A stretch of DNA of 64,000 nucleotides, from NCBI GenBank assembly GCA_951406725.2, contig OX597837.1, positions 20,212,001 through 20,276,000 on the forward strand, read 5' to 3'. Numbering within the stretch: the stretch's first letter is position 1; each line of letters opens with the position of its first letter. Below are positions 5,878-42,387 of this stretch, piece by piece. The notes beneath the pieces were generated by a model. The model worked only from the letters and a program-made list of their open reading frames with translations, was not told the DNA's origin and searched no databases. Made by a program: the position numbers and the translations under genes. The DNA is from Octopus vulgaris (lineage: Eukaryota).

Positions 5878-7026
5878 ACGAGGGGTTTTCATTAAAGATT
5901 TCCTCTGACCCACTTCCGGTTATTGCAGGAAACTGAACTTGTACATGTATAATCATACATGTCACTCCATGTTGAATGCAGATCAGTGATCAGGTTTTTA
6001 TACTTGAAAGGTCGTACACTAAAGGAGACTTTCGATGAGATGAAAGACGTTTATGGTGACAATGCACCATCATATGACGTAGTCAAGCACTGGCATCGCC
6101 AGTTCCAATATGGTTGGACGTCGGTGAAAACTGTTCCTATTTCTGGACGACCACATTGTGGAAGCCGCCATTCTAGAGGATCGCCGCATAACTATTCAGC
6201 AACAAGCCCAAGAATTGAAGATATGTGTAAGGTCCGTAGAAAAAAATCCTTCACGACCATTTGCACTTGCCCAAGTTGCCTGCATTATTGATTCCCTGAA
6301 TCTCCCCACCTTTTCAGAAGCAGGAACAAGTTAATTGCTCCCAGTCCCTTTTGGCAATGCGTCAAGAAAACAAGGACTTTTTCGGCAGACTTATCACACA
6401 GGAAGAAACATGGGTCCATCACTATAATCCTGAGACTAAAGTACAGTCGAAGCAAGGGAAGCATGATAACTCACCACCTCCAAAGAAGGCTCGTGTCCAA
6501 CCCTCAGCAGGCAAGATGATGCTCACAGTCTTTGGCGACCAGCGCGGAGTAGTGATGATGGATTTTCTGGCGAAGGGTAACACAATTAACAGTGAATATC
6601 ATGCTTCTCTGCTTCAGAAATTGCGGAACACCATCAAAGCAGAAAGGTGTGGCATGTTGTCCAGAGGAGTCCGCCTCCTCTTGTTCACAATGCGCATGTT
6701 ACCCAGATAAAAGCACACTAGGCTAAGAAATCCTTCATCATTCCCCCTTACTCTCCCGACCTCGCACCATCTGACTTTCTACCTCTCTTCCAACCATGAA
6801 GTCGTTTTTGAAGGGGAAACACTTTTTGGGTGATTTCTTATTTCCGAGGTAAAGCCTTGGCTCCAGACGCAACCTACTGTCTTCTACAGCTGAGGTCTTC
6901 ACAACTGCATAAAGCGATGAGAGAAGTGTTTCACCATTGGTGGTGGCTATGTAGAGAAGGACTAATAATTATGCCAAGTTTCGTTTATCCCAGACCTTGG
7001 AAATGGGTCAGGAAAAATCTTTAAGT
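5878..7026 (+). mobile_element. Decayed near-full-length mariner transposon (transposase pseudogene)
   Basis: Frameshifted pieces RSVIRFLYLKG...VYGDNAPSY...SGRP, ITQEETWVHHYNPETK...SAGKMMLTVF and PYSPDLAPSD (about 6747-6776). Ends aaagatttcctctgacccacttcc / ggaaatgggtcaggaaaaatcttt are complementary. Confidence 0.88.
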
Positions 7027-27289: not shown

Positions 27290-29527
27290 ATAAAAATGAC
27301 GAAGTTGTGCGGTATGACGGAGGAAACTACATCAGACTTTTTGGTGCATCTTCAATGTTCTCATTCAAGAGAGGTACTCACTCATCATTCATCTGAGCGT
27401 CCATCAAAAGAATGACCACAGGGTTATTTTCACAAAGCAAGCAGCCTTACAACAAGCACTTTCTCCAAAAGAAACTACCCTTACTGCCTTTTTTCAAGTT
27501 GTGGCAAGTAGATGAAGATACAAGAAAACTCCTTTACCCAAAATTACCCAAGTATTACACATGGAGAAACAATAAATGGCACCAGAGGAAACGTGAGGGC
27601 TGACGTTCTTGCAAGAGTTAACAGTGTCCCCCCAAGCCAAGCAGAATGCTACAACTTACGACTCCTTTTGCATGAAGTACGTGGTCCCAAATCATTCCAA
27701 GATTCGAGGAGGGTAAATGGTCATGTGTGAGAAACTTATAGGAAAGCACGCTATCAACAAGATATTTTTAGAAAATGATGAGCATTGGGATCTTGCATTG
27801 ACTGAAGCATCGGTATCAGATTCTCCAAGGGAACTCCGTTACCATTTTGCAATTATACTGAACATGTGTCAACTTGGCAGTTCCCTACAGCTTTGGAGGA
27901 AACATCGTGAGGGCTAACCCAGATATCAATATTCAGTTCTCTGAAAGAATTCTTAATGAAGCACTGATTGAAACTGAAAATCAAGCTTTGGTCATGGGGA
28001 GACAAAAATTTGCCAGAGTCTGGCTCTGGAATGCCAAAAACAAACTAATTAGTGATTTAGAGACAGCAAGAGAGAGAAATTATGACATCACAGACTTGGC
28101 TGCATTTGTGAATGAACCTAAACTTCTTCCAGAACAACGCTGTGCATATTATTGTTATTATTATTTCGTCTGTCAGAGAGAAAAGTAGAAGAATTTTCTT
28201 TCTTGATGCTCCCGCTGACACAGGTAAAACATTTGTAACAACATTGTTTCTCTCCAAGGTGAGGCAGCAAAAAAGAATTGTAGCTGCTGTAGCATCGTCT
28301 AGCTTTGCTGCCATCATTCTCCCTGGAGGACAAACAGCTCATTCTACTTTTAAATCACCGCTAAACCTGGTCACAAATAACTGCCCACTTTGTAGCATAA
28401 ACAAAGGCTCAGGTTCAGCAGAAGTGTTGCGCCAATGCCATCTGACCATTTGGGATGAATGCACCATGTCACACAGACATAAGAGGCAACAATGAATCTA
28501 TGGAAGGATTTACATTAGTTTTATCAGGAGATTTCAGACAGACATTACTAGTCATTCCGAGACGAACAAAACCTGATGAAATAAAAACATGCATTAAATC
28601 TTCACACCTATGGAATAAAGTGCAGAAATTCTCCTTCAATACTAATGTGCGAGCTTTATTGCACGGGGACCAATGTGCAGAACAGTTTTCAACCTGGCTC
28701 CTCCAATTAGGAAATGGCTAAGAACTATTTGATGGGAATGGTGATAGTTTGGCTCATATTGCTATCGTTGTGAATTCCTCAGTTGAATTTAAGTAATAAT
28801 TATAATTCACATAAATGGTTTGTGAAAGGGCAATTCTTGCTCCAAAAAATTAAAGTGTAGCAAGGATTAACCATGAATTAATGAATAAGATTCCAACAGT
28901 CATTGAAGAGTACAAATCAATTTATTCAGTCCTTGAGGAAAATCAAGTTGTCCATTACCCAACAGAATTCCTCAATTCTCTTGAGCCACCTGGAACTCCT
29001 CCACATAAACTTTTTCTGAAGGTTGGAGTCATAATGATGCTTTTAAGAAATTTAGATCCTCCTAAATTATGCAATGGGACAAAGTTGGTTGTGAAGACAT
29101 TATCACCTAATGTGAAAGAAGCAACCATCATCACTGGATGTGCCTCTGGGGAAGAGGTTTTCATTCGAAGAATTCCAATTAAACCAACAGACATATCATT
29201 TGAGTTCAGACGAACAGAATTTCCAGTGCGACTTTGCTTTGCAATGTCTATTAATAAAGCTCAAGGTCAGACTTTGAAACCTACTGGTTTGCACTTAATT
29301 GAACCTTGTTTTTCTCATGGTCAACTTTATGTTAGTTGATAGTTCGCAAGACTTATTTGTCTATTGTCCAAACCAGGAAACAAAGAATGTTGTTTACCCA
29401 GAAGCTCTTATGAAATTCCCTTCAACATATGTGATAGAATTTATCCCTTTTCATAAAAGTGGTAAATTTTGTATTTTCCTTTTGTTTTTTGGTTTTTTTT
29501 TGTATCATCACCATCATCATCATCATC

Positions 29528-32795: not shown

Positions 32796-33361
32796 AAAAA
32801 TTTTCTAATTTCTGTATTTTTGTATTTTTTCTGTATTTTTCTGGAATTTTAATACGTCATTTTTAATATGTCCTTTTTATGTTTTATCATCCCAAATTTT
32901 AATTTACCAATGTTTTATAACTTTAAGCGTAAATTCACTGTGTTTTGTATGTAACACTGATTATTATATATTTATATATATTATATGATTTTTATCTATT
33001 TAGATATATTGTTATATTTATATATGTCGGATTTTATATCCGTTCTGTAGATATAAATGAATATATGCATGTATTTGATCTTTGTGTGTGGATCTTTGTA
33101 ATGTTCCTTTAGTTTCTGCTCACATTGCCTCCGCTTAAATTAAGAAGTGGAATATAGCTCATTTGGAGCACAACAAATCCAATCTGTATTATATTTTGAG
33201 TATTGTTATTACTAGCGATCTCAAGATATGAATGTGTATTTTGTATTTCATATATATTGATAAAAATGGTAGGACAACAAAGGAAAGAAAGAGACCTGGA
33301 TATTATGTAAATAGAGGAATTTATCTGTAAATGTAATATGTGACAATTATTCGGTAGCCAT

Positions 33362-33422
33362 GATAAAACTCGAAGTTTGGAATGCCGAGGTGGAAATCCA
33401 CGCCACCATCTCTTCAGTTATC
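33362..33422 (-). ncRNA. Decayed hammerhead remnant
   Basis: GAUAA CUGAAGA GAUG...CAUUC CAAA CUUCGAG UU UUAUC. G12 is mutated to C. Confidence 0.45.
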
Positions 33423-34318
33423 CGGCCATCGGGAAAATGCCTATTATATATATATATATATATATAAGGGGACTTGTTCATCCTCAAAATCTTCCTTCCA
33501 CGTCTGAGATTTCAGTTTCAAATCAACCTCCCCTTCAACCCTAACAAACAGCTAACTGTATTCAATTCGCGTCGAAACTAGCCAAATGGACAAAACCTGA
33601 AAAAGTTGCACAGAAAGTTTTGCCTGGTTGCATGTGCAACTACCCGTACTTTGTGTAGCGGAAACACGTATAGGCCGTAACAACCATACAAATAAGCTGT
33701 AACAAGTCTCCATATCCTGTATCGTTAAAATCATTGCTGATTTACCCTCTAGATAATATTACCATCCAGAGAAGTGAACACGAATTGCCCATCGGGGGAA
33801 TTTACAGCATGAGTGACAACTAATAGTAGTCATGAACGTTAAATACTAATTAATGCTGTTAGCCGTAACCTGGAACCATAACAACTCTTTCTCTCTCTTT
33901 CTCTCTCTCTCCCTCTCACACACATATATGTATTATTTATGTATGTATTATATATGCGTGTTTGAGTTTGCCTCCCACCACCACTTGACAACGGGTGTTG
34001 GTTTGTTTATGTCTCAGTAACTTAGCGCTTCACCAAATTACAGGAACACATAATAAGCACCAAGTTTAAAAGATAAGTATTGTAGTGGATTTTTTTTTTT
34101 GACTGATCGCTTCGAGGTTGTGTCCCAGCCTGGCCGCAGTCTAATGACTGAAACAATTAAAATTTGAATTAGCTCTAATATGCGCACGCGTGCACGCGCG
34201 CGTGTGTGTGTGTTTGTGTGATCGTGTGTGTTTGTGTTTATTTTTTGAGACTGTTTCAAAGTCTGCGGACTTATTGACCCTGATTCAGTTCTGGTTTCCA
34301 AAGAACAATTAAATGATT

Positions 34319-34527
34319 ACGTAAGGAGTATCAGCCATCTGAATGTGGCTAGCCACTGGGGGGGGGGGTGTTACTGATGCTTTTAGCCCTAGGCGATCAA
34401 CGTCACCAGAAGGACTTTAGACACTATCTCAGTGTCCTTGTGTTGTTTGCAAAGGGAGGTCATCCTCCCTCGAAGACACCGTGTACTACATACGGACTAT
34501 AGTTTCGAGGTCATTGCCTCTTGTCAA
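34319..34527 (-). repeat. 3' direct terminal repeat (209 bp)
   Basis: Matches 40219-40425 with about 4 substitutions and a 2-nt G-run indel. Confidence 0.97.
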
Positions 34528-34551
34528 CGCATGGCAAGCACCGGCCTTCGA
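34470..34551 (-). ncRNA. Complete type I hammerhead ribozyme with U3-A8 variant core
   Basis: UCGAAGGC CGGUGCU UGC CAUGCG | UUGACAA | GAGG-CAAUGA-CCUC | GAA | AC-UAUA-GU | C^ | CGUAUG U AGUAC ACGGU GUCUUCGA. Extended stem I of about 20 bp. Predicted cut between 34495 and 34494. Confidence 0.85.
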
Positions 34552-34908
34552 TGAAATTTTCTTTATTATGATCAATAGATCTAACATAGAATGGATACAT
34601 TACAGGACAAAACAATTACAAAAATGCTATGCGAGTTCGAATGAAATTTTAAAAATTACAAAATTAAAATTTTATGTCACTTGAACGAAAACTTGGCTTA
34701 CTTTGCCTTGAAACGAAACCTTGGCTTACTTTTGCCTTTATCACGAGAACTTTTAGTGCGTATGTTTTCTTTTCATTTCTTTTTTTTTTATTATTAATTC
34801 TTTATTTTAAACAGTTATGTACAGTGAAAGGTAATGGGAGGTACCAGTTTCAATTTTGAACCCGGCAGCCTATAAATCCCAGCAGCTGATTTTTCTTTTC
34901 CTCGATGA

Positions 34909-37900
34909 TTAAGCTGGGTTACTCTCACCCACCTTTCTCATCACATCCTTCCAACGTTCCATATACTCTTTCTGTGGCAGGCTCCTCTTCTCCAACCCCA
35001 TCTTGCTCTTCAGATGATATCCGAAGTATTTTAACAAACCGGGGCCAGAGATAAAGGACCCTTTCACCAGACCTTCCACTCTAGTTCTCCATACACACTC
35101 TTTCAATACTGCCACCGTACAGTAAAAACAAGCCTTACCTTCCTTTGAGAGTCCAGTTGGCGGTATCATCTTAATCATAGATCCAGCCGACAGCTGTACT
35201 CGTCCCAGATGCGACAACACGTGTTCCACGTAACTTATCAAGCCTGACAGCTCCCGACATTGTACAAAAGCGTGTTGAACGGTTTCATCGTCCAACCCAC
35301 ATCTTGGACACGTCGGTGGCACTGACATTCCGTGCCTGGATAACTTCTCGCGAACAGGTAATGCATTCCTATAGCACTGCCAGGTCAGGGATTTTTGGTA
35401 ATTATCCAAATACCCCGGCCTGAAAGTCTTCTTAAACAGGTTGGAGAGTTGATCCTCATCGAACCCCAGAGCCCTTCCTAGGACGTCGTCATTTTTTCCT
35501 CCTACCAGCCCTTTATAGAACACCGAGGTGGTATTCCCGCTGCCGGCCTTACCCATCTTGTGGATCAGCCAGAGTGCCTGTCGGCACTCCTTCTGCCATG
35601 AAGTCAGTTTACGTCCTTTAATGAGACCGGGTGTAAATCCCTCCATAGAGGCCGGTCGCGGGAAGAATTCCTCTGCCAGCGAACTCCACACCTTATCATC
35701 CTCCAGGTAACACCAGAGGTGTCTCAGCCTCAACGCATGCTTGCGCATCATTAGCCAAGGCATCCCCAGTCCACCCTTTAGCGGTTCCTGGCAACACACG
35801 GAGCGTCTCACAAGTGGCTTTCCTCCTTTCCACAAAAAGCGGAAAAGAAGTCGTTCCAACTTGTTTAACCACGAATCGGGGCAAGGCACGACGGTCAGGC
35901 GGTAGGTGACGACAGAGGCTATAAACATCTGTGCCACCTCCGCCCTCCCTTTCAAGGAAAGATGCCTTCCGGACCACTTCCGTACTATGGCATCCACCTT
36001 GCTCGTTACCTCGCTCCAATTCTTCTCCGTCTGGGAGTCTGGACCAAACCAGACTCCGAGCAATTTAACAGGACCATCCGTCCAGTGTCCAACAACACTG
36101 GACGGTATCTGCTTGTTCCTCCAGGTGCCGAGGCGCAAACCGATGGACTTGTCCCTGTTAACTTTTGCCCCTGCCACCGCTTCGTATCTATGGAGAGCAC
36201 CTACTACCCGAGGTAGCTGTGTTCCGTTGGACACGATGAGGGTGACGTCATCCGCATAGGCAGAAACAGACTTACCGCATCCGATTTCATTAGGGTTGCC
36301 TCCCAACTTCTCCAGCTTCCGCAGCAATGGCTCAAGAGCCAAAACATACAGGAGCGGGGACAAGGGGCACCCTTGACGAACTGAACGCTTGATCGAAAAC
36401 GGCTCCGTTAGGTAACCGTTTATCTGGACTGTGGACTTGATGCCGCTGTACATAGCTGAGATCCACCCGCAGAAGCCAGGGCCCAGCCCAGCCGCTTCGA
36501 GAACCGCCGCCAAGTACCGATGGTCCACCCTATCAAACGCTTTACTTTGGTCTAAATGGACCAATGCCCCTCCTTTGCCGTCTAATTTCCCGACCCTATC
36601 TATAGTGTAGCGGAGAAGGTGAAGATTATCCTGGATCGACCTGCCTGGGATTGCACATGTCTGTGCCTTCCCGACAAGTTTCTTCACGACAGCCGTCAAC
36701 CTTTTTGCTAACACCTTGGCCAAAATCTTAAACTCTACATTAAGTAGAGTTATGGGCCTGTAATTACTAATACTGTCCCCCTTGCTCGGGTCTTTCTGGA
36801 CCAGCGTCACAACTCCCCGACTCACAGAGCTGGGAATCCTCCCATTCTGTTGCCAGTTTGCATAGACGCTTGCCAGTATGTCCCCGAACAAGTCCGGCAT
36901 ACAACAATAAAATTCATAGGGTAGACCATCCAATCCCGGTGACTTTTCCCCGGCGCACTCGGCCATAACCCCTCTTACCTCTGCGGGAGAGATCGATCCT
37001 TCACAGCACTCCGCCTCACCTGCCGAGAGCCGAGGCCCACCAGCTAGGAAGTCCTTTAAGGTCTCCCCACGCTCGAGCGGGCTACCGCCCCCAAACAGCC
37101 GTGCGAAATGCTGGTGAAGGACCTTCTGCATCTCCTCCTGTCCATAGATCTTGCGGTCCTGCTCGTCAGTTAAGGACATAATACAGGACTTTTTGCCCTT
37201 CTGACTCTCCTCACGACGGGCCCATCCGGCAACGTTAATACCTTCTCGTTTTCCTGCACGTAACTTAGCTCTGACTCTACACCCCTCGTGCTTGGCGTTG
37301 AGGTGACGGTACAATACCGCTCTCGCTGCCAACACTCCGGATGCACAGCCAGATTCCATAGCCTCGTCTAAGTTCTTAACTAATTCGCCCTCTATTCTAG
37401 TCCTATCTAAACTTAGCTGCTTGCTAAATCTAATGGACTCCAAACGGATGGCTCTTTTGAGGGCGTGCCACCATCTATTATTAATGATGGTGCCACATAA
37501 TGCCCTCTGTACTAATTCCTTAATCCGGGTACGGAAAGCTTCACAGGTCAAAATAGACTTGTTCATCTTCCAGTACCCGGGACCTTGTCTATGGCATTTA
37601 TCTACATGTACCTCACACGTTACAAGTTTGTGATCCGTGTAAGGCACAACAGAGAATTGTGGACAGCTAACACTATTCCTATCTCGTTCCTTAACAAATA
37701 CTCTATCTATGTACGATCTGAGTGAGCCGTCGTTATTACTCCACGTCCACTGTGGAACGTTCGGCTCATCCAGTCGAAAACGGTCTACTAGATTAAAGCT
37801 CGCTAGTAGAGCCTTGAGGCCAGGATTCCCCTTCCTATCGCTCGAGCCTACACCATCCACCCGCGCATCGAGAATGGTGTTGAAATCCCCTACCAAGACT

Positions 37901-38298
37901 ACCGTTTTGGACGTCACTAGAAAGTGCTCCAGTTCCCGATAAAAACCGGTCTGCCCACGTCCGTTAGGAGCGTAGACAGCCACCAACCTGAAGGACTGCT
38001 TACTCACGTGCGTCACATCTAGGACAACCAGCCTACCTTCTGGGTCCAAAAAGACAGTACTTACCTGTAAGTCCAAGTTCTTCCTGAAAAGAACTGCCAC
38101 GCCTGCACCTCCCCCTCGGCTAGGAGAAATAAATTTCTCGTAACCATTGAGAAGTGGTGAGAACGCTTGCGGTCCCTTCATCTTGGACTCGGTAACAATA
38201 GCTACTTCGATTCTATGTGAAATGAGGTCGTCACGAAAACAAGCCTGTTTCCATTTCGATCCCATTCCACGCACATTTATACAACCTAACTTAATCAT
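34909..38298 (-). CDS. Tx1-clade ORF2: AP endonuclease, reverse transcriptase and C-terminal zinc finger (1129 aa, intact)
   Basis: APE motifs INVRG, AVYAP, GDFN, IDRVF, TDH. RT motifs SPGLDG, NYRPITLLN, DQSKAFDRV, VRQGCPLSP, YADD. C-terminal CPRC...ETVQHAFVQC. Confidence 0.97.
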   Translation of the reverse strand: MIKLGCINVRGMGSKWKQACFRDDLISHRIEVAIVTESKMKGPQAFSPLLNGYEKFISPSRGGGAGVAVLFRKNLDLQVSTVFLDPEGRLVVLDVTHVSKQSFRLVAVYAPNGRGQTGFYRELEHFLVTSKTVVLVGDFNTILDARVDGVGSSDRKGNPGLKALLASFNLVDRFRLDEPNVPQWTWSNNDGSLRSYIDRVFVKERDRNSVSCPQFSVVPYTDHKLVTCEVHVDKCHRQGPGYWKMNKSILTCEAFRTRIKELVQRALCGTIINNRWWHALKRAIRLESIRFSKQLSLDRTRIEGELVKNLDEAMESGCASGVLAARAVLYRHLNAKHEGCRVRAKLRAGKREGINVAGWARREESQKGKKSCIMSLTDEQDRKIYGQEEMQKVLHQHFARLFGGGSPLERGETLKDFLAGGPRLSAGEAECCEGSISPAEVRGVMAECAGEKSPGLDGLPYEFYCCMPDLFGDILASVYANWQQNGRIPSSVSRGVVTLVQKDPSKGDSISNYRPITLLNVEFKILAKVLAKRLTAVVKKLVGKAQTCAIPGRSIQDNLHLLRYTIDRVGKLDGKGGALVHLDQSKAFDRVDHRYLAAVLEAAGLGPGFCGWISAMYSGIKSTVQINGYLTEPFSIKRSVRQGCPLSPLLYVLALEPLLRKLEKLGGNPNEIGCGKSVSAYADDVTLIVSNGTQLPRVVGALHRYEAVAGAKVNRDKSIGLRLGTWRNKQIPSSVVGHWTDGPVKLLGVWFGPDSQTEKNWSEVTSKVDAIVRKWSGRHLSLKGRAEVAQMFIASVVTYRLTVVPCPDSWLNKLERLLFRFLWKGGKPLVRRSVCCQEPLKGGLGMPWLMMRKHALRLRHLWCYLEDDKVWSSLAEEFFPRPASMEGFTPGLIKGRKLTSWQKECRQALWLIHKMGKAGSGNTTSVFYKGLVGGKNDDVLGRALGFDEDQLSNLFKKTFRPGYLDNYQKSLTWQCYRNALPVREKLSRHGMSVPPTCPRCGLDDETVQHAFVQCRELSGLISYVEHVLSHLGRVQLSAGSMIKMIPPTGLSKEGKACFYCTVAVLKECVWRTRVEGLVKGSFISGPGLLKYFGYHLKSKMGLEKRSLPQKEYMERWKDVMRKVGESNPA

Positions 38299-38317
38299 CG
38301 AGAAAAAAGAAAATTAT

Positions 38318-39828
38318 TTACTCACGGTTGCGAGAGGGAGCCTGACAGATTCTTTCTGCCTGTCTCCCCCCACTCGCCGTTGCTGCTGGGTGTTTCACCG
38401 GCGTTGCCACCGGGCTCTGGGTTGGTGTGGCTGCCGGGCTAACGGGTAATTTCCCAGTTGTCACCTCCTGGGTGACATCCTTAATGAAGCCGGCTTTTAC
38501 GTGGCTTTGTAAGGTTTTGTCTTTCCATCCTTCTTCGCCGACCCTTCCATATCGCCACTCCGCTTCCTTCTCGGTCGCTTTGTAGCACCTGATCAGCGTA
38601 CTTGCTTTCACCCATGTTTCTACTCTCACGTTCTTTGTGGTGTATGCAATAATTTTTTCGTTGGGTTTAAACCCTTTTACAGTTGGGGGGTGGGGTTTGT
38701 TAAAGTGCTGGCCTATAAGTGTAGTACCGCCGGGGTGGGATTGGAGAATATTTTTAATTTGTTCGTCTGCGTTGTTTTTTTTTTTTTGATACGGGTGGGG
38801 AGTCAGGGGTGATGGATTTTTTCCTTTTGTTGGACACGTTCGTAAATTCCATGTCTTCTTGTTTATTTGTTTTTGTTGCATTATTTTCCTCATCCTTTCC
38901 TTTCTCATTTTGCATTTCGTTCTTGTCTTCCTCCTTTTTGGAGTTCGACCTGTTTATTTTTTCCTCCTTGTTTTCGCCAGCCGTTACTTTTTTCTCCACT
39001 TTGCTGCTTTCTGCGTTCTTCACAGCGTTTTGTGGGGGCGTTGCCCGCATTATTTTTTTTTGTGCAAACAGAGCGAACGTGGCCCTTTTGCCCGCACTTA
39101 AAACATCTGGGCCTGCGTCCTTCCACCGAAACTCGTATGGAGTGCCCCTCCCCCACGAAGACTCTGTCTGGTAGGCTTTCCAACGTCGCATTTTCCGCCT
39201 GGATTATCATCTCCAGCTGCTGGCCTCTCCAGTGTTTTGCAATTTTTCTCTTCATACTTAAAATTGTCAATTTTGATTCAACATCAAAAATGACCGCTGT
39301 TGCCGCCCACATCACGTCGTAGCCCGTTGGTATATCTTCTAGGGTCACTTTTGCGGTTCTGCATCCTAAATATAAGGGTAGCAGTATTATACTCTCGTTT
39401 TTCAACGTTTGTGTCGAAATTTGCCTTGCTACTTCCGCCGTTTCAAAATGCGCCTCCACTGTAGCGCTTCTTGCACCTCGGTTGACATGACTAACTTTAC
39501 TCCATATTGGAGCCATACACTTTTCGACCATTTCGTTTTTCACGTCGGTCATTCGTTTTTCCTTGATATTGTACACCCTGTAGGTGACCATTTTTTCCTT
39601 TATTGCTTGTATAGTTTCGGGGGGCGGTACCAATCGTGTTTCTTCACCACTTTTTTGCACCAGCGATCTAAACTTGAATAATCTTTCCATTGATACCTCC
39701 ATTTCTTCGACTTCGCCACCTACGGCGTCTGAAAAACTGGGTTTTGTCTGTGTTTCCTTTTGTTTAACAGTTGTTATACTTTCTCCCATCTCGGGAAAGT
39801 CTTTTTTTGAACTTAAGTCTAATTCCAT
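38318..39828 (-). CDS. ORF1 nucleic-acid-binding protein (~502 aa if two single-A frameshifts in A-runs are removed)
   Basis: Zinc knuckle CFKCGQKGHVRSVC. Three overlapping ORF pieces join at A9 (39053-39061) and A13 (38775-38787). The stop lies 19 nt before the ORF2 ATG. Confidence 0.85.
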
Positions 39829-40218
39829 ATTAGACAACACAAACTTGTCACAAATGACAAGAGAATTTTTTTTTTCCAAAAATAACCTATACAGGTTAAG
39901 AGTTCACACAAAACAGCACACAGAAATTTTCTACCCCGAAGGGCGAAAATTACTGGGTCAAAAACAGTTCAACAATGATATTACTTGTAACACGACAGAG
40001 TAGACAAACGGAAACGAACTCACACAACGATTTGCAGCAACAGAAAAATATTGGTATACACCGAGGAAAAATTCAAAAAACACCGGTTTTCGATGAAGGA
40101 GTTCCCTTTACAAACAATATATAATGTTTTTCACAGTAACCACCGTCACTGATGTAGAAAAACTGTCTGAAAACAATAATAAATCTCTGAACGAGATATA
40201 AACAGTAACCGCTCGACA

Positions 40219-40425
40219 ACGTAAGGGGTATCAGCCATCTGAATGTGGCTAGCCACTGGTGGGGGGTGTTACTGATGCTTTTAGCCCCAGGCGATCAACG
40301 TCACCAGAAGGACTTTAGACACTATCTCAGTGTCCTTGTGTTGTTTGCAAAGGGAGGTCATCCTCCCTCGAAGACACCGGGTACTACATACGGACTATAG
40401 TTTCGAGGTCATTGCCTCTTGTCAA
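40219..40425 (-). repeat. 5' direct terminal repeat (207 bp) starting exactly at U3 of the hammerhead core
   Basis: Same core, stems II and III and GUC site (predicted cut 40393/40392), but the 5' strand of stem I is absent. Confidence 0.95.
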
Positions 40426-40699
40426 AGTACATAATTTCTGCTCGGAAGGGACACCAGTTATTCGCCGGGTCAAAAGCCCCAGTTGCTACTGCTATTGGTT
40501 ATACATTTTTCAGAAATGACACGAGCAATGTCCCTGCTTAAGAACACAATACACTCCATTGTGCAGGAATCGAACCCATAGTCCATTGTCTCGATTCCAA
40601 CACCTTAACCACTACACTATATATACCAACAATAATTTATATTTTCCTCTTATTGTTTTATATTTTTTATTCCTTTCTTCGTTGTTATCCTCTTGGTTT

Positions 40700-40772
40700 C
40701 CTTCTTCTTCTTCTTCTTCTTCTTCTTCTTCTTCTTCTTCTTCTTCTTTCCCTCCTTCTCCTTCTTCTTCTC

Positions 40773-40804
<32 letters not shown>

Positions 40805-41565
40805 CCTTCCTCTCCTTCTCTCTTCTTCTTCTTCTTCTTCTTCTTCTTCCTCTCCTTCTTCTTTCTCTCCTTCCCCTTTTTCTTCTTCTTCTTCTTCTTC
40901 TTCTTCTTCTTCTCCTCCTTCTTCTTCTTCTTCTTCTTCTTCCTCTCCTTCTTTCTCTCCTTCCCCTTCTTCTTCTTCTTCTTCTTCTTCTTCTTCTTCT
41001 TCTTCTCCTTCTTCTTCTCCTTCTTCTTCTTCTTCTTCTTCTTCTTCTTCTTCTTCTTCTTCTTCTTCTTCTTCTTCTTCTTCTTCTACTTCCTCTCCTA
41101 CTCCTACTTCTCCTCCTCCTCCTCGTCCTCGTCCTCCTCCTTCTTCTTCTTCTCCTTCTCCTTCTCCTTCTACCTCTTCTTCTTTTTCTTCTTTGTTTTC
41201 TTCTTCTTCTTCTCTCACATCCTTCTTTCTCTTTTACATTTCATTCTTGCTTTCTATATTTTCTTCTTTCTCTGTCATTCACCTCCTTATTCTTCATTTT
41301 CTATTTGTTTTTCATCCAATGTCTTCTCTCTTTTTTCTTTTTTTTCTTTTTCTTGTCTCTTTCTTTCACTCCCCCATATTTTTCTTCTTCTTTTTCCTGT
41401 TATACTTCATTCTTCTTCTTCTTCTTCTTCTTCTTCTTCTTCTTCTTCTTCTTCTTCTTCTTCTTCTTCTTTTTCTTCTTCTTCTTCTCCTTCTTTTTCT
41501 TCTTCTTCTTTTTCTTCTTCTTCTTCTTCTTCATTATCATCATCATCACCTTCATCTAAATCATT

Positions 41566-41616
<51 letters not shown>

Positions 41617-41650
41617 GTCATCATCATCATCGTCATCATCATCATCATCA
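40700..41650. repeat. (CTT)n/(CAT)n polypyrimidine-rich tract
   Basis: Visible directly. Confidence 0.95.
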
Positions 41651-42387
41651 ATATTATCGTCAGCTTCATTGTCGCCATCTATCTTCTCTCTACATATCTC
41701 TCACCTTCTTTATTCCCGCTCCGCTCAACGTTCCACGCCGCCACTCCCATCACCCCATTCCCATCGCTACCACCACCATGCTTTTCTCACCACTACCGCT
41801 ACCTCCACTAACCACCCTCTAAACCCCACCCCACTCACTACCACCCAATTCAATCCTGAAGAAGTTATTATTAACTTGGAAGATTAAAGAGAGACTCCAT
41901 TTTCCCCCGGAACTCTCCACATTCTACAATGGAACGTTTTATCCCCAGGATGACTTTTGCACTGGCAAAGTGTTGAAGACAAAACTGATCATTTCGCCAT
42001 CTCCATTTCGTTTACCATAATGATATTAGCGGCAGAAAGATGCTTTATAGATAGATGTATCGCCGCCACCATCTGCGCATGCGTGCTGCCGTGTCTTCAA
42101 TGATTGGTAGTACTTAACATCAATTTTTCATCAATTTCCGTTGTTATTCAGCCTCAAGACAGACCTGGTCGAGTAGACCTATGATCAAAGGCCTTGCAAC
42201 TTTGGCCGTTTCACCTTATACTTTGGCATAGTTTACCTACGACTGACTACATTATCTTAATATGTCAATGTTATTTGAGAACGGTTTTTCAGATGTGATG
42301 CAAGAGGAATTTATTTCGCTGCTGTTTCTAGCAATTCGCTTAGCCATGATGATGATCGACTTTCAATCCTCAGTCGGAATTGCTTCT

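Follow-up and report, generated by a model that had tools for sequence, protein, structure and literature searches.

The octopus element and its complementary ORF2 ends

The window analyzed here is a stretch of 64,000 nucleotides from Octopus vulgaris (assembly GCA_951406725.2, contig OX597837.1, positions 20,212,001 to 20,276,000 of the forward strand), and all coordinates below are counted from its first letter. Its minus strand carries a retrotransposon without long terminal repeats (a non-LTR retrotransposon), of about 5.5 kb (34556–40080), in which the start of the second open reading frame (ORF2) is complementary to the region around its own stop codon. Sequence comparison gives good support to a long-range RNA helix, maintained by selection, that spans the ORF2 AUG. 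The ends of the element were placed by the target-site duplication, and BLAST comparison with other copies put its limits near 40084 and 34549. ORF1 (38318–39828, minus strand), which encodes a zinc knuckle, is split by two small indels in the window copy into pieces of 307 and 196 amino acids; in copy L031 it is a single unbroken frame of 503 amino acids. The zf-CCHC domain was found in all five ORF1 pieces searched, above the cut-off in two of them and just below it in the window ORF1. ORF2 (34909–38298, minus strand) is open in the window copy and encodes a 1129-amino-acid protein with apurinic/apyrimidinic (AP) endonuclease, reverse transcriptase and zf-RVT domains. The Pfam models Exo_endo_phos, RVT_1 and zf-RVT all score above cut-off, and the best PDB match is human L1 ORF2p (E 1e-62). 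The sequence ends in a 3' untranslated region (3' UTR; 34556–34908, minus strand) with AATAAA and a short A-rich end. An N-terminal AP endonuclease, reverse transcriptase and C-terminal zinc-binding domain in ORF2 and a separate ORF1 characterize L1/Tx1-type elements, and the target-site duplication, the poly(A)-signal 3' end and the absence of LTRs fit that type. By these sequence features the element is a target-preferring L1/Tx1-type non-LTR retrotransposon, placed in a tree that contained no named Tx1 references.

The 5' arm of the complementarity (38283–38316, minus strand) comprises the pyrimidine-rich ORF1-ORF2 spacer, the ORF2 AUG and the first five codons. The 3' arm (34887–34920, minus strand), 3.4 kb away, comprises the final ORF2 codons, the stop codon and the purine-rich beginning of the 3' UTR. 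An earlier note, made from the letters of this DNA alone, had described the two as inverted repeats, and its coordinates and counts proved correct: 28 Watson-Crick pairs, three G-U pairs and three mismatches in the sense RNA, with a perfect 13-bp core. The spacer is indeed 19 nt long, with the ORF1 stop ending at 38318 and the ORF2 ATG at 38298. This arm pair is the longest and top-ranking inverted repeat in 33000–42000. When the 5,536-nt element was shuffled with dinucleotide composition preserved (n = 575), inverted matches over 34 nt reached 26 positions at most, and none of the shuffles gave 28. The comparison with shuffled controls that the note had proposed gave a duplex of −54.0 kcal/mol between a 95-nt start window and a 90-nt stop window (z −3.7; 0/300 shuffles), and the helix (−15 to +15 around the AUG) is present in the minimum free energy fold of a 3,900-nt RNA running from the end of ORF1 to the 3' end. 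The note had also read the G-U pairs as a sign of selection at the RNA level. That argument fails for the window copy because the antisense strand likewise forms 28 Watson-Crick and three G-U pairs; among 11 representatives, G-U counts favor the sense strand in six and the antisense strand in four, with one tie. On the plus strand, antisense to the element, positions 34865–34908 include a TATAAA roughly 30 nt ahead of an ATG that the 3' arm supplies, an arrangement absent in the L071–L073 subfamilies.

Pairing in related elements

Searches of the genome with distant protein queries recovered six further families (B, C, E and D, F, G). Together with group A, which contains the window element, they form one clade of three branches with support of 100 in a quick tree. 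ORF2 identity between families is 56–81%, and the comparison leaves out the relatives P0002 and P0011, at 36–40%. The spacer and AUG pair with the ORF2 stop and proximal 3' UTR in all seven families. The start-stop duplex has z values of −2.1 to −5.6 in A, B and C (B −5.1, C −5.6) and of −3.6 to −9.6 in seven copies of families D to G, where it was equaled by none of 100 shuffles each and by at most one of about 170 other windows. Arm sequences vary among families, and in an 8 × 8 swap each of eight representatives found its own arm pair to be the best in both row and column. The earlier note had asked whether complementarity persists with compensatory changes in diverged members, and it does so in all seven families, in changed sequences. 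We consider a selected long-range helix supported because the pairing is kept despite this turnover. The complementarity, its retention while the arms change and the placing of start against stop are direct observations: in 11 of 11 representatives the AUG has its partner between −10 and +12 nt relative to the ORF2 stop. That the AUG itself lies within a paired helix is a prediction, given by co-folding with local competitors, in which it paired with the 3' arm at a probability of 0.55–1.00 in 10/10 representatives. The sense duplex was more stable than the antisense duplex in 10 of 11.

Close subfamilies follow the same pattern. Group A comprises 67 loci at 79–100% identity, of which 56 copies yielded both arms, giving 41 distinct arm pairs that were compared in one fixed register; 11 loci yielded no pair. 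All three bases of the AUG are paired in 41/41. Compensatory changes occur in these arms even inside coding sequence, with position +3 occupied by A-U (23), G-C (16) or G-U (2) and position +9 by U-G (25) or C-G (16). The L061 subfamily has changed its stop codon to UGG and keeps the pairing through two U-G pairs, which are possible on the sense strand only. The natural chimera L080, with an ORF2 start from the L070 subfamily and an end from the subfamily of the window element, has lost the outer helix.

Beyond the clade, a first metagenome scan found nothing. Among 19 distant elements on metagenome contigs (24–30% identity, start codons guessed), a strong spacer-stop helix is predicted in two, L205 (z −6.1) and L207 (z −3.8), and in none of the other 17; GTRAGT, the motif discussed below, occurs within 110 nt in 0/19. 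L205 and L207 are L1-like elements of 25–27% identity on another branch of the tree, in which a predicted helix of 20–28 bp joins sequence upstream of ORF2 to its stop. Their helix is possibly convergent. Judged from these sequences, the start-stop helix is clade-wide and at most scattered elsewhere.

The splice-site consensus and possible roles of the helix

The helix over the AUG proposed in the earlier note stands, and the note had overlooked an invariant 5'-splice-site (U1) consensus just upstream, GTGAGT at the end of ORF1 (38320–38325, minus strand), which recurs as GTRAGT in all seven families. It lies 7–74 nt before the ORF2 AUG in 22/22 representatives of these families and is found at 61 of 65 group-A ORF2 starts, a count that excludes 29 anchor matches that are the antisense of the 3' arm. 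Its background frequency in ORF2 is 20 sites per 37,455 nt, or about 4% per 80 nt. The motif is independent of the ORF1 stop frame, with the stop at donor +1 in most of A and in F; in families B, C and E and in the window copy it is at +5, and the L143 ORF1 reads through the donor. Families D, F and G have the motif as AAG/GTAAGT. The exon-side match is poor in A, B and C, where many other GT sites fit the 11-nt consensus equally. Predicted pairing of the donor with the 3' arm ranges from 0.01 to 1.00 over 10 representatives: the donor would be covered in C, E, F and subfamily L070 (0.82–1.00) and uncovered in the window copy, L063 and family G (0.01–0.07). We infer that GTRAGT is a U1 site more likely to protect transcription through ORF2 than to remove ORF2.

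With moderate confidence, we propose that the arms, complementary in every family, form a helix that buries the ORF2 start against its stop and probably brakes ORF2 translation. The earlier note had suggested three roles for the helix, a limit on ORF2 translation, recycling of ribosomes and cis-preference for full-length RNA; the first is favored here, since what does not vary is an AUG predicted to be paired and set opposite the stop. Pairing of an AUG and the nucleotides upstream of it normally impedes initiation. The ORF1 stop lies 7–66 nt upstream of the ORF2 AUG in A, B, C, E and F, and ORF1 overlaps the AUG in some family-D copies. Ribosomes finishing ORF1 would thus stop near the AUG and reinitiate only while the helix is open; the helix would make reinitiation rare and limit the output of the genome-cutting enzyme, so that a complete RNA would give much ORF1 protein (ORF1p) and little ORF2 protein (ORF2p). 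The helix would come open for a short time when a ribosome arrived at the ORF2 stop. Transcription gets to the 3' arm near its end, so the brake would be carried only by RNAs with the whole ORF2. Passages of a review describe termination-reinitiation as the route to ORF2 in L1 and SART1 (PMC5972666), and another paper argues that long interspersed nuclear elements (LINEs) require ORF1p in many copies and ORF2p perhaps in a single one (PMC3894237).

Four other explanations were weighed against this brake, beginning with the possibility, which we think unlikely, that ORF2 is a facultative 3.4-kb intron and that the helix draws the donor at the ORF1 end toward a 3' UTR acceptor, so that splicing would produce an ORF1-only mRNA. 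The donor at or just before the 5' arm in every representative, above background and whatever the stop frame, is what such an intron would need at its 5' end, and the portion of PMC5580714 on the plant Ty1/Copia element EVD supplies a precedent in shGAG, a short GAG mRNA. A candidate acceptor, GTAG/G after a pyrimidine tract, is common to B, C and E at 83–99 nt after the stop, accompanied in B and E by a branch-like TTGAC. This is as far as a conserved branch point and 3' splice site go: by the same rule, the whole 3' UTR lacks an acceptor in 6 of 14 representatives, three more have only a far-3'-end site, and no conserved acceptor stands out within ORF2. The window 3' UTR has a weak TAG/G acceptor-like site at 34870 that is lost in some subfamilies. 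In C and E, moreover, the predicted helix fully covers the donor, which would hinder splicing. Retroposed spliced copies were not found at the predicted junctions of B and C, against 132 family-C copies with an intact donor; family B had no deviating copies, and the five deviating family-C hits were three point or indel mutants and two unrelated sequences. Nor was a spliced copy present among 30 loci of the window subfamily located by their ORF1 ends. This is a weak test, because an RNA that lacks ORF2 may leave no retroposed copy. Contigs drop rare forms and so do not show absence; in those of four runs compared with the window element and of four runs compared with family C, no joint at the donor appeared among the 15 joints listed for the former or the two for the latter. 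A short intron fusing ORF1 to ORF2, only about 36–40 nt long in A and judged by eye, was rejected as a general rule: it would be in frame in C and the window copy and out of frame in B and most of A.

That the helix instead activates ORF2, by recycling ribosomes from the ORF2 stop to the AUG or by positioning ribosomes leaving ORF1, seems to us quite unlikely. ORF2p would then be made only from RNAs with complete ORF2 and 3' UTR. The placing of start within about 12 nt of stop in 11/11 is tighter than a plain brake needs, and a downstream structure is required for SART1 ORF2 coupling according to passages of PMC5972666; yet the AUG and upstream nucleotides are predicted to be paired, which would impede initiation, and LINEs are thought to need little ORF2p (PMC3894237, in part). 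Decidedly improbable, in our estimate, is a nuclear completion sensor, with translation control secondary, in which U1 on the donor of the nascent RNA would suppress early 3'-end formation until the transcribed 3' arm displaced it and licensed processing, export or assembly of the ribonucleoprotein particle. The 3' arm is predicted to cover the donor in families C, E and F and in L070, as such displacement would require, but to leave it free in the window copy, L063 and family G, and ORF2 contains only 0–3 A[AT]TAAA signals per family. U2 small nuclear RNA (snRNA) promoters normally yield short transcripts, and three near-identical copies are located at the 5' ends of such genes, which would suit a sensor of this kind, as would the anti-termination role of U1 in EVD (part of PMC5580714). 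Both the facultative intron and the completion sensor could coexist with the brake. Chance, or neutral inverted duplication of DNA from one ancestor, is scarcely credible and is largely refuted by the covariation. The helix partly pairs pyrimidine-rich with purine-rich low-complexity sequence, and several families have an antisense duplex of almost equal stability, as chance or duplication would allow; against this stand the 0/575 shuffles, arms that differ among families and stay matched, and compensatory changes in coding sequence.

Several observations weigh against a helix that acts as a brake over the AUG. The sense advantage over antisense is less than 2 kcal/mol in four of the 10 representatives that show it, and the helix is short or bulged around the AUG in several families, with an uninterrupted run in the expected register of 5–21 bp. 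Within group A, roughly half of the 41 pairs fail to match at positions −1, +4 and +11. The L063 5' arm prefers the L073 3' arm (−54.0 versus −48.4 for its own), and 9 of 340 other L063 windows score as well as its own pair. The duplex predicted for L205 and L207 has its strongest part upstream of the guessed AUG, and a translational brake alone does not account for the splice-site consensus. Tentatively, the clade may wrap all of ORF2 in a regulated RNA loop that the start-stop helix would close and the U1 site would open, a single switch which would set a spliced or terminated ORF1-only mRNA against a full-length RNA with a single round of ORF2 translation. If that were true, it would amount to a retrovirus-like switch between structural protein and enzyme of a kind not known to be described for non-LTR elements.

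Known systems resemble this arrangement in part. Tx1-clade elements (Tx1, Keno, Kibi, Koshi) are alike in their two ORFs, AP endonuclease and reverse transcriptase, duplications and repeated targets; they are treated in PMC4494074, and in the literature searched we found neither a start-stop helix nor a U1 site described for them. Mammalian L1 and SART1 share a bicistronic LINE RNA with an ORF2 start just after ORF1, but the SART1 structure described in part of PMC5972666 is local and needed for initiation, whereas the partner here is 3.4 kb away at the ORF's own stop and covers the AUG. The Arabidopsis Ty1/Copia element EVD likewise has a conserved U1 site at the end of its structural gene, which serves both splicing and protection from early termination; as passages of PMC5580714 present it, EVD belongs to the LTR elements and its short intron has been demonstrated, while here there is no universal acceptor and a spliced product was not seen. 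In RNA viruses, too, strands far apart pair on or beside a start codon and gate polymerase translation, as in the Min Jou pairing over the MS2 replicase start and in flavivirus cyclization. In the octopus clade, by contrast, the partner is taken from the stop of the very ORF concerned, the element is a nuclear-transcribed retrotransposon, and the arms turn over between families. A paper on octopus LINEs treats an RTE element and does not mention "Tx1" in the portion concerned (PMC9115989). No description of LINE start-stop pairing was found in a search of open-access literature; subscription papers, Repbase reports and supplements were outside its scope, and a prior note is possible. On its sequence, then, the element is of a known type, and its covarying clasp and U1 site appear to be a variant of LINE expression control with no description found in the open-access literature searched.

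The arrangement bears on how LINEs yield abundant ORF1p and very little ORF2p and favor their own full-length RNA. Throughout one clade, a compact RNA element with covarying arms is predicted to link the ends of ORF2 beside an invariant U1 site, and its seven natural versions offer ready matched and mismatched arm pairs. The comparison of spacer with stop can be applied as a screen to any LINE library, and two distant elements score already.

Insertion targets and neighboring sequences

The target-site duplication of the window element consists of a 5' copy (40081–40097, minus strand) that is identical at 15 of 17 positions to the 3' copy (34539–34555, minus strand), both in repeat family D12; duplications of 17–20 nt also bound copies L063, L070 and L147. 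On either side lies the host repeat that served as the insertion target, at 40219–40425 (5' side; repeat families D2 and D5) and, as repeat comparison showed, at 34319–34527 (3' side). The same repeat forms the 3' flank of 23 of the 51 group-A copies with a readable 3' end. Group A thus exceeds the level taken as target preference, more than 20% of flanks of one type, and such preference is a hallmark of the Tx1 clade (both in passages of PMC4494074). This host repeat (window 40219–40425 and 34319–34555; also in L033 and L034) is abundant, about 360 nt long and found in tandem and inverted arrangements, and its empty insertion site is visible in contigs.

Three copies 99% identical to the window element (L031, L032 and L039) adjoin complete U2 snRNA genes, with an Rfam U2 match to model positions 1–192 directly after the element. 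In these (at about 6594–6792) and in L037, copies of 98–99% identity stand at the 5' end of the U2 gene with its first nucleotides duplicated. U2-linked copies are a minority, most copies of the group being inserted elsewhere. An identity with Keno was rejected: the U2-linked copies abut U2 nucleotide 1, whereas the 3' flank of Keno and Utopia begins at nucleotide 39 (PMC4640811, section 6, in part). Flanks differ among families: group A adjoins the dispersed repeat and U2 genes, family B adjoins (ATT)n, and families C and E adjoin (TATC)n, the microsatellite flanks having been seen in few copies: the family-B copies examined (L126–L132) end in (ATT)n, and L120–L125 and L145–L146 (families C and E) in (TATC)n. 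The 5' flanks of L072, L088 and L147 carry a TATA-like box 25–30 nt upstream of the insertion point. Together with the U2 cases, these boxes hint that some families may target transcription start sites.

Tandem arrays are common among copies of the window element, and families B, C and E include many copies with an open ORF2 in tandem arrays of 5.3–6 kb units. One open frame of 2,499 amino acids was discarded as ORF2 running on into microsatellite. Rfam covariance models at E up to 1 gave no match in 33500–41000, and a tRNA search of the window found none; by eye, 40556–40630 (minus strand) looks tRNA-like, as in the head of a short interspersed nuclear element, although neither ARAGORN nor Rfam calls it. 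Elsewhere in the window, a 152-amino-acid ORF at 28881–29339 (plus strand) resembles, by eye, what we take to be a fragment of a PIF1/Helitron helicase.

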